Of a DNA stretch of 64,000 bases, positions 34,113 through 48,364 are shown one piece after another. Source of the stretch: Octopus vulgaris (taxonomy: Eukaryota); contig OX597816.1 of NCBI GenBank assembly GCA_951406725.2, forward strand, positions 154,318,001 through 154,382,000, read 5' to 3'. The notes under the pieces were generated by a model. The model saw only the letters and a list, made by a program, of their open reading frames with translations, searched no databases and had not been told where the DNA came from. The position numbers were made by a program, and so were the translations under genes. How positions within the stretch are numbered: position 1 is the stretch's first letter; each line of letters starts with the position of its first letter.

Positions 34113-34348
34113 TACGACGTGATTTACAAGATCATTGCTGATATAGTCTTGTAAAGTGGCAAACGGGAGCTGACTTTACTGTACTCTTCGGAGTATAGTT
34201 GTTTTGTGCAGTGAAATCCCATTCCACCATGTCGAACATAAATACTTGTCCCCTGGTTGCCAGCTGAGGACTTGAACAGGGTATATTCCAAAACTTCTCG
34301 TAGTCTCTGTGACTATTACCGGGGAGTGAGACCATACTCGGTACAGTT
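34113..34348 (+). ncRNA. SNORA73: U17/SNORA73/snR30 H/ACA snoRNA, copy A (RPLP0 intron 1)
   Basis: 5' stem cgacgtg/catgtcg, H box ACATAA at 34236, m1 ATATTCC at 34283, m2 AGACCAT at 34329, ACA at 34343-34345. AAGTGGC and TCCCATTCCAC blocks match recalled vertebrate U17. Confidence 0.88.
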
Positions 34349-34945: not shown

Positions 34946-35183
34946 ACCGACGTGATTTATGAGATCATTGCTAAAATATCTTGTAAGTGGCAAACGGGAG
35001 CTGACTTTACTGTACTCTTTGAGTACAGTTGTTTCGTGCAGTGAAATCCCATTCCACCATGTCGGAAATAAATCTTGTCCCCTGGCTGATAAAGTCAGGT
35101 GAGGACTTGAACAAAGTATATTCCATAACTTCTCATAGTCTCTTTGACTATTACTGGGGAGTGAGACCATACTCGGTACAGTC
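34946..35183 (+). ncRNA. SNORA73: U17/SNORA73/snR30 H/ACA snoRNA, copy B (RPLP0 intron 1)
   Basis: ccgacgtg...ccaccatgtcggAAATAA (H box), m1 ATATTCCATA, m2 AGACCAT, ACA at 35178-35180. Confidence 0.9.
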
Positions 35184-35813: not shown

Positions 35814-35867
35814 ATGGTCAAGGAAGATAAATCAACCTGGAAAGCCAACTATTTCATCAAGATCATT
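35814..35867 (+). CDS. RPLP0: RPLP0 coding exon (exon 2, acceptor at 35770)
   Basis: [18 protein letters not shown] followed by gtaagt. Confidence 0.95.
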
Positions 35868-38800
35868 GTAAGTACAATTGTTTAATGTAAGCGTTTAACT
35901 TAACCGACGTGTTTTATGAGATCATTGCTAAAATATCTTGTAAGTGGCAAACGGGAGCTGACTTTACTGTACTCTTTGAGTACAGTTGTTTCGTGCAGTG
36001 AAATCCCATTCCACCATGTCGGAAATAAATCTTGTCCCCTGACTGATAAAGTCGGGTGAGGACTTGAACAAAGTATATTCCATAACTTCTCATAGTCTCT
36101 TTGACTATTACTGGGGAGTTAGACCATACTCGGTACAGTCTTATCAAGTGTTGTCGGTTTAAGACTGTATAGAGATCAGTATTTTAAAGTGTCTTCATTT
36201 TCTTTCAGCAATTGCTTAATGAATATCCCAAATGCTTCATCGTCAATGCAGACAATGTTGGCTCCAGGCAGATGCAGACCATCCGTATGTCACTCAGGGG
36301 CCATGCAGGTGAGAAAATTTTAAATAGTTTAATTTGTTTTTTCGTTCGCGTCTCAACCACATGCTTTGGGTTCAATTTCATGGGTTGCAACATGGGTAAA
36401 GTTGAAAGTTGTGTGCGTGTGTTGTGTACTATGACTTCGCGTGATAGTCGGTGTCACAAATAATTGTCATTCGTTTCCAATCTTTCATCGAAACTCATCT
36501 TCTTGGTCAGGGACAAATATCTTGTTTGGAAACGCGTGTGGTTTGGTGACTAGAAGAATGTTAATTGTCAGAGAATTTTATTCAATCTAGAAGGAAAAAT
36601 GAACGTTAAATTGGATATAAATTTTGAGGTGTGATGATGAAGTAACTGCTATTAAGTGTTCAGCTTTTGGCACTAGTAACCGAAAGGTTGAACCCACTAG
36701 TGTTTGCTGGGCGCTATGACAAAATGTAGCCAAGAATGGCTGTCTGAACACCCTATTCTTAATACTAAGAACTTCAGCATGCTTTTGATATTACTATACT
36801 AATTTGAAGAAAATTACTATACTAATTTTCTTTTCATCACATTCAGTTGTCCTCATGGGTAAAAACACAATGATGAGGAAGGCCATAAGAGGTCATTTGG
36901 AGCACAATGCAGCCCTTGAAAGGTAAGTTCGAGATTTTTTCCACTAAAATGCATATTGCCAGTTTCGATTTCGATGTTGCTTGGGTTATTCTTGATCAGA
37001 AGCAATCTTGAACTGGTATAATAATCCGGTCACTTTTTTGCCTTGTAGTTCTTTGATACTGGACACTACAACTTCCCCTTAAGTGATACAATTTTTAATT
37101 CTAAAATGTTCACCTTGTGTTCTATAAGGACGTGTCAATTAAATAATGGTATCTTTGATCATGCAGAAAATAAAGATTTACTTGCAACTATTGCATGAAG
37201 TTTTAAATGCAGATGCTGCTAAATTTGCAACCAGTGTGGGTTCAGACCGTCATTTTTTTTCTATTATAGCCTTGGACCACTCAAAACCTTGAGACTGGAA
37301 AGACTAGTCATGGTGTTTCATGCCTGTAAATGTCACTTATGCTAGCAGTGACCATTTCCAATCTCTTGTGAAAATTCATCTTAGCTATGGGGAAATAAGT
37401 GAAGGCTGGTGAATGGCAGGATGGCTGTAGAAGATCCATCTGTAATTCTGTTCTACCCATTCCTCAATGGGAAGGTGGTCTTGCTCATCCCCCACCTAAC
37501 AACCAATAAAATGCTGGATATAAGTACTGAAGTCAATTTTGTTAAAATCAAAATCGTAATCTATAAACATCAATAGAATTTGTAGCTCTGATACCAGTGC
37601 CGGTGGCATGTAAGAGGACCATCCGAACGTGGCCGTAGCCAGCCTCGTCTGGCACCACCTGTGCCGGTGGCACGTAAAAAGCACCCACTACACTCACGGA
37701 GTGGTTGGCGTTAGGAAGGGCATCCAGCTGTAGAAACATTGCCAGATCAGACTGGGTCTTGTGCAGCCTTCTGGCTTCCCAGACCCCAGTTGAACCGTCC
37801 AACCCACGCCAGCATGGAAAGCGGATGTTAAACGATGATAACTCCTGTGTTGCCCTAGCATGGCTGGAATATGAAATGAGTAAAAGATTTGCTTGATTAT
37901 ACAGTGTTGGTTGTAATGTGTTAAAATTTAGGTTATTAAACAAATACTTGTCTGTTGTAGGTTGCTACCACACATTAAGAACAATGTTGGTTTTGTGTTC
38001 ACCAAGAATGACTTGGCTGATATCAGGGATAGATTGCTGAATAACAAAGTAAGTTGATTTTCATTCCATCTAAACAGTGAAACTTTATTTTGATTGATTC
38101 TCATTCCCCTACTGATAAATTCATATTTATTTATAGGTAAAAGCTCCAGCTCGTGCTGGTGCTGTTGCTCCCTGTGATGTGTTGATACCTGCTCAAAATA
38201 CAGCTCTTGGTCCTGAAAAGACTTCTTTCTTCCAAGCTTTGTCTATCCCAACAAAAATCTCCAGGGGTACTATTGAAATCTTGAATGATGTCCGTTTGAT
38301 AAAGGAAGCTGATAAAGTTGGAGCTTCTGAGGCTACATTGCTAAACATGTTAAACATCTCACCATTTTCATATGGTTTAGTTATTGAGCAAGGTAGGTTG
38401 CGTATAATTTATTTTGCAGCCCTCAAGAATGATGAAAAAAAGAATGACTTTCGCTCTACTGAAAACTATGTAGATTCTTTATCACTGACTTAAGGGCTTT
38501 ATTTATTTAGTGTCTTGTCTGATTTATTAATTTTTTTGTTTATTCTTATACTAGTGTTTTTATTCTTATACGGTTAATATAAAGCGTTACGCCTTTCAGA
38601 AAATCAAAAAAAAGTGTGTAATAGGTGTAAAACAACTTCCTATGAACGAATATGAAAAAAAAAATGCCCGCACGCGAAAGGGGTGGGGGAGAGGACACGG
38701 AAAATTCACATCGGGAAGTTCCGAAAGCGTCTGAGGGGCCTCCCCGGGCACCAAAAAAAAATAGTGTAATATGTGTAAAACAACTTGCTCTAAACGAATA

Positions 38801-40824
38801 AAAATGCGCACTCGCGAAAGAGGGGTGGGGAGAGGCATCGGAAAATTTATATCGGGAATTTCTGAAAGCGTCTGAACCGGGCACAAAAACAAAAACAGCG
38901 TAATAGGTGTGAAACAACTTGCTCTAAACGAATATGATTAAAAAAATGCGCGCTCGCGAAAGGGGGGTGTGGGAGAGGCTTCGGAAATTTCCCATCTTCA
39001 GTCCACAGCCTTTAAACTAAGAAAAAATAGTGTAATTGGTGTAAAACTACTTGTTCTAAACTAGTATCAAGAACACACACTCACACATGAATCATAAACT
39101 CCAGGGGTACTATTGAAATCTTGAATGATGTCCGTTTGATAAAGGAAGCTGATAAAGTTGGAGCTTCTGAGGCTACATTGCTAAACATGTTAAACATCTC
39201 ACCATTTTCATATGGTTTAGTTATTGAGCAAGGTAGGTTGCGTATAATTTATTTTGCAGTCCTCAAGAATGATGAAAAAAAAAGAATGACTTTCGCTCTA
39301 CTGAAAACTATGTAGATTCTTTATCACTGACTTAAGGGCTTTATTTATTTAGTGTCTTGTCCGATTTATATTTAATTTTTTTGTTCATTCTTATACGGTT
39401 AATATAAAGCGTTACGCCTTTCAGAAAATCAAAAAAAAATGTGTGTAATAGGTGTAAAACAACTTCCTATGAACGAATATGAAAAAAAAAAATGTCCGCA
39501 CGCGAAAGGGGGGTGGGGGAGAGGCCACGGAAAATTCACATCGGGAAGTTCCGAAAGCGTCTGAGGGGCCTCCCCGGGCACCAAAAAAAAAATAGTGTAA
39601 TATGTGTAAAACAACTTTCTCTAAACGAATAAAAATGCGCACTCGCGAAAGAGGGGTGGGGAGAGGCTTCGGAAAATTTATATCGGGAATTTCCGAAAGC
39701 GTCTGAATCGGGCACAAAAACAGCGTAATAGGTGTAAAACAACTTGCTCTAAACGAATATGATTAAAAAAATGCGCGCTCGCAAAAGGGGGGTGTGGGAG
39801 AGGCTTCGGAAATTTCCCATCTTCAGTCCACAGCCTTTAAACTAAGAAAAAATAGTGTAATTGGTGTAAAACTACTTGTTCTAAACTAGTATCAAGAACA
39901 CACATGAATCATAAACTCCAGGGGTACTATTGAAATCTTGAATGATGTCTGTTTGATAAAGGAAGCTGATAAAGTTGGAGCTTCTGAGGCTACATTGCTA
40001 AACATGTTAAACATCTCACCATTTTCATATGGTTTAGTTATTGAGCAAGGTAGGTTGCGTATAATTTATTTTGCAGCCCTCAAGAATGATGAAAAAAAGA
40101 ATGACTTTCGCTCTACTGAAAACTATGTAGATTCTTTATCACTGACTTAAGGGCTTTATTTATTAGTGTCTTGTCTGATTTATATTTAATTTTTTTGTTT
40201 ATTCTTATACTAGTGTTTTTATTCTTATACTAGTGTATGACTCTGGAACTGTTTTTGCACCTGGTGTCTTGGACATTACTGATGATGATATCCGTAAGAA
40301 GTTCATGGCTGTAAGTACTTTTTTCATTTATAAACTCGTTGCAGAATGTTTAAAACTGCCTTCATCATGATATTCAAGTAATATATATATCTTCTTTGCA
40401 GGGTGTGACAAATGTTGCCAGCTTGTCTCTGGCTATTGGATATCCAACATTGGCTTCTATACCACATCTTCTTGTCAATGGCTTCAAAAATCTGGTTGCT
40501 ATATCTTTGGAAACAGATATTGAGTTTGAAGAAGCAAAAGAGGTATATTAGTTTTGAATTTTTTTTTTTTTTTTTCACTTGTTAAATCTGTCAATAAATT
40601 ACATCTGTGTTTTTATTGGATGAAACTATGAAAATGATTTGTATTTTCAGATCAAAGAGTTGTTATCAGATCCTGAGAAGATGGCAGCTGCTCTGGCAGC
40701 AAGTGCTGCTAGTACTGCTGCTGCAGCTCCTGCAGCTGCCTCTGCAGCAGAGGAAAAGAAGGAAGAAAAAGTAGAGTCTGAAGAAGAGTCTGACGAGGAC
40801 ATGGGTCTTGGCTTGTTTGATTAA
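35814..40824 (+). CDS. RPLP0: 60S acidic ribosomal protein P0 (uL10), 8 coding exons, 321 aa
   Basis: Coding exons are 35814-35867, 36209-36308, 36847-36922, 37961-38048, 38137-38392, 40234-40310, 40402-40542 and 40651-40824. All introns are GT-AG with consistent phases (966 nt total). The protein runs [36 protein letters not shown]...[19 protein letters not shown] at 40829. Confidence 0.97.
35903..36140 (+). ncRNA. SNORA73: U17/SNORA73/snR30 H/ACA snoRNA, copy C (RPLP0 intron 2)
   Basis: Almost identical to copy B including flanks. H box AAATAA, m1 and m2 present, ACA at 36135-36137. Confidence 0.9.
36209..36308 (+). CDS. RPLP0: RPLP0 exon 3
   Basis: tttcag|[33 protein letters not shown]|gtgaga. 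Confidence 0.95.
36628..36752 (+). ncRNA. SNORD22: U22/SNORD22 C/D snoRNA (RPLP0 intron 3)
   Basis: C box ATGATGA at 36634, D box CTGA at 36744 and terminal stem ggtgt/acacc. The central AAAGGTTGAACCCACT and the 3' hairpin plus TGTCTGA match recalled human U22 (AAAGGTGAACCCACT...TGTCTGA). Length is 125 nt. Confidence 0.8.
36847..36922 (+). CDS. RPLP0: RPLP0 exon 4
   Basis: [24 protein letters not shown] with canonical splice sites. Confidence 0.95.
36957..37093 (+). ncRNA. Box H/ACA guide snoRNA (RPLP0 intron 4)
   Basis: Hairpin 1 has stems ccagtt/aactgg and ttgctt/aagcaa. H box ATAATA at 37018. Hairpin 2 has stems tcactt/aagtga and ttgtagt/actacaa. ACA at 37088-37090. About 137 nt. Confidence 0.75.
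37580..37842 (+). mobile_element. SINE or RTE-related 3' tail in RPLP0 intron 4
   Basis: ggttggcgttaggaagggcatccagctgtagaaac...catggaaagcggatgttaaacgatgat. Related copies lie at 12080-12180, 56675-56780 and, reversed, 62660-62890. Confidence 0.75.
37961..38048 (+). CDS. RPLP0: RPLP0 exon 5
   Basis: [29 protein letters not shown] with canonical splice sites. Confidence 0.95.
38137..38392 (+). CDS. RPLP0: RPLP0 exon 6
   Basis: [35 protein letters not shown]...[12 protein letters not shown], donor gtaggt. Confidence 0.95.
38419..38497 (+). ncRNA. SNORD59: SNORD59/snR54-like C/D snoRNA, copy 1
   Basis: C box ATGATGA at 38429, guide AATGACTTTCGCTCT before D' CTGA at 38459, D box CTGA at 38485, terminal stem gccctcaag/cttaagggc. 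The guide matches recalled human SNORD59 (AATGACTTTCGTTCTTCTGA) except at two positions. Confidence 0.85.
38572..39098 (+). mobile_element. Single arm of a modular foldback-type transposon, copy 1
   Basis: Starts GGTTAA and contains three ~130-nt modules (gtaaaacaacttgctctaaacgaat...cgcgaaaggggtggggagagg...cggaaa). Homologous to arms 42657-43069 and 43820-44225. Confidence 0.8.
39099..39232 (+). pseudogene. Duplicated 3' half of RPLP0 exon 6 (pseudo-exon, copy 2)
   Basis: Identical to 38259-38392 at offset 840. It keeps the donor but not the native acceptor. Confidence 0.9.
39259..39339 (+). ncRNA. SNORD59: SNORD59/snR54-like C/D snoRNA, copy 2
   Basis: Same boxes and guide as copy 1, with a longer A run and one C>T change in the 5' stem. 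Confidence 0.8.
39397..39915 (+). mobile_element. Single arm of the foldback-type transposon, copy 2
   Basis: Tandem copy of 38572-39098 with scattered substitutions and small indels. Confidence 0.8.
39916..40049 (+). pseudogene. Duplicated 3' half of RPLP0 exon 6 (pseudo-exon, copy 3)
   Basis: Copy of 38259-38392 with one C>T change (CGT>TGT, R>C). The donor is retained. Confidence 0.9.
40076..40154 (+). ncRNA. SNORD59: SNORD59/snR54-like C/D snoRNA, copy 3
   Basis: C box at 40086, D box at 40142 and an intact stem. It lies about 80 nt upstream of the exon 7 acceptor, the usual position for intronic C/D snoRNAs. Confidence 0.87.
40234..40310 (+). CDS. RPLP0: RPLP0 exon 7
   Basis: (V)[25 protein letters not shown] followed by gtaagt. 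Confidence 0.93.
40402..40542 (+). CDS. RPLP0: RPLP0 exon 8
   Basis: [47 protein letters not shown]. Confidence 0.95.
40651..40824 (+). CDS. RPLP0: RPLP0 exon 9 (terminal)
   Basis: [10 protein letters not shown], Ala-rich hinge, acidic tail [13 protein letters not shown], stop TAA. Confidence 0.96.
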   Translation: MKELLSDPEKMAAALAASAASTAAAAPAAASAAEEKKEEKVESEEESDEDMGLGLFD

Positions 40825-47400: not shown

Positions 47401-48193
47401 GTTACTCAGTGTAGAAATGGATGCAAATTTGTTATATAACAGGCAGAATTCTTATTCTGAAAAATACAATGTATCAACCCAAGTATCTTATTGATCCTAG
47501 AAGGTTGCAAAATTCAATAGAATTTCCTTTCAGAACAAAGTATTTTGTCACTCAAACAAATCTACTGGAGGGGCAAAAGTGATACATAGAAATTAACAAT
47601 TATTATATACTACATAAATCATATATCCCTGTTCTTCTAGAATTGCACTGTGCTGGAACAGCAACTTTTAGATATAATCCAAATACAACCTATCAGATCA
47701 TTAACATGTAAAATAGAAAATTTGGAATGAAAGAATGCAATTCGGCCTTCATTTAGTGTGTTTGCTTGGAACAAACTACTAATAGTGTGAAGTTCAACTG
47801 AGTACTTTGTAAATGAAAGGCTCATCAGTTATGTAGTACTGTGACTGCTTGGTATCGAACTATTTCCATATTGTACCTGCTTACAATTAAATGTCATGAC
47901 ATTAATACACTGCTGGTAACAGTATGAACTCCTGATCCTTTAGCTGGTAGTTGCTATGCAATTATAGCATACAGTTATAGTATTCAAGAAAGACCCCTTA
48001 CCTAAAAAAAAAAAAAAACTTTTTCAGCCTGTTGCTTGTTTAGAATGTCTGAGTATTTTTTTATACATAATAATCAGAGCAAGTGGTGATTAACCATTTA
48101 CATGAAAGCTAAAATATTTATCAATGTGCACAAATAAATATACCACCAATAAATTAGCTGGTTAAATCGAATCTGATATTATTTTATTTTACC

Positions 48194-48324
48194 GGGCGCC
48201 GTGCTTAAAGAGCGACAGCTGCCACCGGTTGTTAAAAATTGCGTCTCCGAAATCTCTTGATTGTGATTCCGCCCAGACGCTCGCAAATCGGCAACTGGGT
48301 GTCACTGACGACAAAGACCCTTTT
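48194..48324 (-). ncRNA. RNU11: U11 snRNA (minor spliceosome)
   Basis: The minus strand reads AAAAGGGTCTTTGTCGTCAGTGACAC...CGATT...GCGGAATCACAATCAAGAGATTTCGGA...AATTTTT...GGCAGCTG...CGGCGCCC, collinear with recalled human U11. About 131 nt. Confidence 0.92.
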
Positions 48325-48364
48325 AATAAACTAACATTTCATTAACTAATATATACCGCTACTA

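Follow-up and report, generated by a model that had tools for sequence, protein, structure and literature searches.

A box C/D snoRNA in octopus RPLP0 whose changed guide base matches a changed 18S rRNA base at the Am1031/Am974-equivalent site

Results

The octopus gene RPLP0 hosts three copies of a SNORD59/snR54-type box C/D snoRNA, all of which carry C instead of U at the fifth base upstream of box D′ (D′+5), and the 18S rRNA of the same genome carries G instead of A at the base that this position faces. Since the guide C and the 18S G pair perfectly, the C-type guide is predicted to direct 2′-O-methylation of G1539 in the octopus 18S, giving Gm in place of the Am found at position 1031 in human and 974 in yeast, a reading to which we assign a probability of about 0.8. 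The coordinates below refer to the window, that is, the whole 64,000-nt stretch of DNA that was analysed.

The host gene and the snoRNA copies

35814..40824, + strand: coding span of the host gene, RPLP0 (uL10), from exon-by-exon matches to Octopus P0 proteins (tblastn)
38252..40230, + strand: tandem triplication with a unit of about 830 nt (self-BLAST, tblastn, repeat contigs)
38420..38496, + strand: snoRNA copy 1, SNORD59/snR54-type box C/D (sequence; Rfam RF00273, 26.7 bits, E 0.049)
38445..38457, + strand: D′ antisense element, with 12 Watson-Crick pairs and one G:U to positions 1536-1548 of the own 18S (duplex computation)
38454..38454, + strand: D′+5 base, C where the reference families have U, facing G1539 of the own 2643-nt 18S (sequence, pairing)
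39260..39338, + strand: snoRNA copy 2, with the D′+5 C at 39296 and two additional A after the C box (sequence, Rfam)
40077..40153, + strand: snoRNA copy 3, with the D′+5 C at 40111 (sequence)

Copy 1 has the RUGAUGA C box and CUGA D box of a box C/D snoRNA, read from the sequence as ATGATGA at 38429-38435 and CTGA at 38485-38488, and these are closed by a terminal stem in which seven of eight pairs form (38420-38427 with 38489-38496). Its C′ box is degenerate, with a C′-like ATGTAGA at 38468-38474. Box D′ (CTGA) lies at 38459-38462, and counting upstream from it (A38458, T38457, C38456, T38455, C38454) puts C at the fifth base. The window contains the guide 17-mer GACTTTCGCTCTACTGA in exactly three places (38446, 39288 and 40103), always on the + strand; 0.08 occurrences are expected by chance with up to three mismatches, and three were reached in none of 100 shuffles. 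The count and the exact matches bear out the preliminary description of this DNA, which had reported a guide with C at this position in three copies.

SNORD59 was the top Rfam family by E-value, with 26.7, 26.7 and 23.6 bits for the three copies, all below the gathering score of 45. Compared with the RF00273 consensus GACUUUCGUUCUUCUGA, the guide differs only at +5 (C for U) and at +1 (A for U). The A at +1, next to D′, is unpaired with the target and is also found in the Rfam consensus of yeast snR54 and in 8 of the 87 metagenome matches listed (see below); it is not part of the guide change. Judged by its guide and its predicted target, the octopus snoRNA is a functional orthologue of SNORD59/snR54 and not a formal member of RF00273. 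For the guide upstream of box D, we found no credible target in the own rRNA, the best runs having 8-10 pairs with one to three wobbles.

The triplicated unit spans codons 148-191, from the 3′ portion of an RPLP0 exon, and the snoRNA-bearing intron, together with a high-copy repeat (about 38570-39090) whose insertion lies immediately upstream of the 3′ splice site; many repeat contigs cover 38585-39090. In self-BLAST the units are 95-98% identical. The three snoRNA copies are one recent tandem triplication, and the guide change therefore counts as one observation and not as independent evidence from three copies. Copy 3 is probably the native copy, given that the 3′ splice site in use, at 40233, lies 88 nt past the end of its D box. 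In contigs of runs X8 and X15, the exon end at 38392 is joined directly to the exon at 40234, such that the triplication is skipped; this junction fits two places, and X15 lacks coverage of the intron. The triplication could be a polymorphism or a feature of the assembly. The snoRNA is likely freed from the spliced RPLP0 intron, a step on which assembled contigs are silent, as they cannot show a processed snoRNA; run X8 does include an intron contig, and its status as RNA is a guess. The guide contigs were free of differences in three of the four sequencing runs compared. Organism A contributed two of these, both DNA runs and one of them possibly the assembly source, and organism B contributed the third; the fourth run was X15. 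The changed guide is established in this genome and in one close relative, the changed 18S in this genome.

Besides these copies, RPLP0 hosts three SNORA73 copies and, in a different intron, a SNORD22/U22-like snoRNA (36629-36752; 38.1 bits, below the gathering score of 50). A second copy of the RPLP0 exon stretch 38135-38282, about 90% identical and likely a pseudogene fragment, is present elsewhere in the genome (DNA runs X9 and X13). The window also holds a U11 minor-spliceosome snRNA gene at 48192-48325 on the - strand (94.5 bits).

The target base in the own 18S

Searching the genome with the Rfam SSU family identified 11 full-length copies of the 18S, each of which has G at the target base and reads GATCAAGAGCGAAAGTC. 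The preliminary description, made from the window, had predicted that the 18S of this lineage would read AGAGCGAAAGUC, and this sequence is present in 11 of 11 full-length copies. It had also asked whether the 18S has G or A at the target and named retention of A as its own refutation; a 26-nt 18S pattern with one mismatch allowed, which is able to report an A at this base, gave 28 matches, every one with G and none with A, so that retention of A is excluded. An earlier 13-nt 18S pattern was at chance level in the own genome (230 matches against 213 for the control) and was superseded by the Rfam search and the longer pattern.

The target is G1539 (context AAGA[G]CGAAAGUC) of an 18S of 64% GC, and it aligns to the AAGagCGAAAG columns of RF01960, which is the site equivalent to human 1031 and yeast 974. 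Cephalopod 18S is described as long, GC-rich and fast-evolving in PMC2841657. Apart from an array on C20 with a period of about 18 kb, 18S copies are scattered over many contigs of the genome (L031-L041, on C20, C1, C5 and C28 of G000), and diverged copies are found among them (L007/L043, L039 and L050).

Positions 2-13 of the guide all form Watson-Crick pairs with the 18S, 12 in total, and +5 is C:G; this supports at the DNA level the compensatory guide change that had been suspected. Across one rDNA unit (18S, 5.8S and 28S), the best site is 18S 1536-1548, with a duplex of -21.4 kcal/mol against -15.3 for the next-best rRNA site, in the 28S, and a perfect 12-mer is expected 0.0005 times by chance in the 7.7 kb of rRNA. 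The pairing agrees with the rule in PMC7668251 that positions 2-10, counted upstream from D or D′, should form at least nine pairs with the target and that +5 should be Watson-Crick. A genome search for either type of guide gave no U-type snoRNA copy; its three matches beyond the window all lack a C box, and the control gave seven matches.

How unusual the guide base is

The preliminary description took U as the norm at D′+5, correctly: U stands there in the Rfam consensuses of SNORD59, snoR23 and snR54, and in 62 of the 63 distinct snoRNA-like metagenome matches among those listed. The metagenome scan looked for C box, guide and D′, with 80 of at least 126 stretches listed, of unspecified taxonomic make-up. 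Among the matches listed (87 in 80 loci), D′+5 was T in 83 and C in four. A snoRNA-like filter that requires a RUGAUGA box and a downstream D box dropped eight T and three C, leaving, among the matches listed, 75 T and one C (62 T and one C as distinct sequences). The three C-type matches that were set aside, L077, L089 and L078, have no D box or no C box of the RUGAUGA type. Two of them, L077 and L078, fall within long open frames of bacterial-like character, and the letters around the match in L089 are identical to those in L077. The single C-type snoRNA-like match among those listed is L116:270-338 on the - strand of contig JGI24158J21664_10001456 (28.2 bits on SNORD59), which may represent an independent origin of C at D′+5. 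The search of viral contigs gave no 18S match.

The assignment of the SNORD59/snR54 site to Am1031 in human agrees with Table 2 of PMC11542601, which lists as the equivalent site Am1031 in human, Am974 in yeast, Am978/977 in Arabidopsis, tomato and tobacco, and Am946 in Ostreococcus. In Plasmodium, Am1043 is predicted, with snR54/U59/AtsnoR59 as the homologues, according to PMC2656528. The universal V4 primer TAReukREV3 carries the same T, hence the U-type sequence (PMC10376359). This widely used primer has a mismatch with the octopus 18S (near 1528-1546) where the base has changed, a point of possible relevance to metabarcoding.

Other snoRNAs matching the octopus 18S

35163..35168, + strand: SNORA73/U17 m2 motif (G)AGACC, consensus AAACC; the same at 34328-34333 (sequence, Rfam)
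36120-36125, + strand: SNORA73/U17 m2 motif (U)AGACC (sequence, Rfam)
G000:C2:106457186-106461623: six tandem U14 (SNORD14) copies, L192-L197 (family search)

Two further snoRNAs, SNORA73 and U14, agree with the own 18S at points where its sequence leaves the Rfam consensus. All three SNORA73 copies have AGACC as their m2 motif, which is complementary to rm2 of the own 18S, GGUCU(C) at 1399-1404, a sequence present in 10 of the 11 18S copies (the pattern missed it in L039). Six m2-rm2 pairs are possible for two of the SNORA73 copies and five for the other one, and on these sequences the m2 motif looks like a second compensatory change.

In U14, domain A has G for the consensus A in 6 of the 6 copies listed and forms 11 Watson-Crick pairs with the own 18S at 85-95; this G-for-A change was predicted from the 18S before the copies were found. 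The matching 18S variant is common in invertebrates and is therefore probably older than cephalopods. Domain B has undergone a C-to-U change, resulting in a G:U wobble with an unchanged 18S. This change explains why the pattern for the U14 D guide had no match in the genome, U14 being found by the family search. The pattern for the U36/snR47-type guide also had no match in the genome. An 11-nt match of U14 to 28S 1278 was noted as well.

Discussion

In the Rfam SSU model, GagC (the target being its third base) pairs with GcuC in a helix of the central domain, which we take to be helix 20 in the E. coli numbering, and the target column faces the C of GCUC. In octopus, 10 of the 11 18S copies have GCUC as this 5′ strand and the remaining one has GCUU, so the new G makes a C-G pair, like C578-G763 of E. 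coli. By the model, whose 5′ strand has C, an A at the target would face C.

The base methylated by fibrillarin is the one opposite position 5 of the guide, counted upstream from D or D′ (PMC7038934), and a Watson-Crick pair at N+5 is reported in PMC6009581 to be essential for methylation. The simplest path would start with the rRNA, and we infer its order and timing from the sequences as follows. The fast-evolving, GC-rich 18S would have changed first, from A to G, gaining the Watson-Crick C-G pair of helix 20. The ensuing U:G wobble at +5 would have held the duplex equally well, and methylation should have weakened. The change of the guide from U to C would then have restored the Watson-Crick pair needed by fibrillarin. 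The computed duplexes are -18.8 kcal/mol for U:A, -18.8 for U:G, -21.2 for C:G and -14.5 for C:A at +5; as U:G and U:A are equal in energy, pairing alone did not require a change of the guide. The change to C arose in an intron of 28% GC. That the guide re-matched a mutated target at +5 suggests selection for the methyl group of the ribose at that position, whatever the base.

It is unlikely, in our estimation, that the snoRNA acts as a folding chaperone on pre-18S, or that its guide has simply drifted, with the G unmethylated or only partly methylated. Such a situation has precedents, in that conserved guide-target pairs without methylation exist (PMC6009581). The known non-methylating cases, however, have a mismatch at +5, where the octopus has a restored Watson-Crick pair. 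The drift tolerated through a wobble in U14 domain B, in the same genome and without a change in the rRNA, shows that guides here also drift; it speaks against strict co-evolution and implies that a single U-to-C transition in the guide could be neutral, and with the C-G pair of helix 20 in place a stabilising methyl may be less needed. Yet a U:G wobble would have been as good a pair as the ancestral U:A, and boxes C, D′ and D and the stem are all intact.

Another way to account for the C is a second or different target gained in the 28S, G1339 in AGGGGCGAAAG, presumably two bases before the G that corresponds to yeast Gm805. This is the second-best site for the guide, paired at positions 2-11, where an unbroken run of seven Watson-Crick pairs begins at +5 and two pairs are G:U, and the guide C makes the +5 pair Watson-Crick there too. 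The zebrafish rules of PMC7668251 require positions 2-10 to form nine pairs, few of them G:U. At G1339 the two wobbles adjoin the box, and the site is 6 kcal/mol weaker than that in the 18S and only about 1 kcal/mol better than background sites (-14.3 to -14.1). As the 18S change fully accounts for the C, we consider a role for G1339 highly improbable. A dead or mismatched guide, with an 18S that retains A (C:A at +5) or with a U-type paralogue acting from elsewhere, is refuted at the DNA level by the 28 pattern matches, the 11 full-length copies and the genome search described above, unless the expressed rDNA is an unassembled A-type class.

Directed methylation of G1539 would have a bearing on why such marks are kept. 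To our knowledge, most single 2′-O-methylations of rRNA have no clear knockout phenotype. Cephalopods are a possible source of many covariations of the kind described here. It is conceivable, although we put it forward tentatively and with some doubt, that their long, GC-rich and fast-evolving rRNA dragged the whole guide set along, with Am turned into Gm at the present site and the m2 motif of U17/snR30, an essential snoRNA, changed in step with the 18S. If this were true, cephalopods would constitute a natural covariation screen for modifications that matter by position and not by base, and for indispensable snoRNA-rRNA pairings.

Comparison with known systems

The octopus snoRNA shares its box C/D layout and its intron-encoded nature with SNORD59 (RF00273), yeast snR54 (RF00473), plant snoR59 and Plasmodium PFS12 (clan CL00065). 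The D′ guide ACUUUCG-UCU directly upstream of CUGA and the 18S site are also the same. It differs from them by C and not U at D′+5, by a target that is G and not A, by RPLP0 as its host and by an Rfam score below gathering. In the literature searched, mostly without subscription papers, we found no report of an octopus or cephalopod case or of a changed Am1031/Am974 guide, and the change in guide and 18S is probably unreported; PMC3917833 and PMC6984369 contain nothing about the site. Equivalent sites with different bases are listed for eukaryotes versus archaea in Table 2 of PMC11542601.

A natural compensation between a snoRNA and a divergent 18S is likewise described for m1-rm1 of snR30/U17 in Trypanosoma brucei (PMC2664660), although there it concerns an H/ACA processing snoRNA, unlike the methylation guide of octopus. 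The same paper, in a survey of few animals, terms m2 invariant, yet m2 varies in the octopus SNORA73 copies of the window.

The closest precedent is zebrafish SNORD34 (PMC7668251). Its target LSU-2824 carries Um in human but Gm in zebrafish, three pairs are compensatory, and methylation was mapped by RiboMeth-seq. The authors call this case remarkable and, in the text available, report two other compensatory instances only, among about 93 assigned sites. Both systems keep the methylated position, in octopus by prediction, while the base changes, with compensation in the guide. However, the zebrafish case is measured and rests on a comparison of two vertebrates that differ in three base pairs, whereas that of octopus is predicted, involves one change and concerns a site where yeast, plants and human all have Am. 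With a measured event of this kind on record, the octopus case is a rare and clean example, at a site more deeply conserved than the zebrafish precedent, of a principle that is itself already established.
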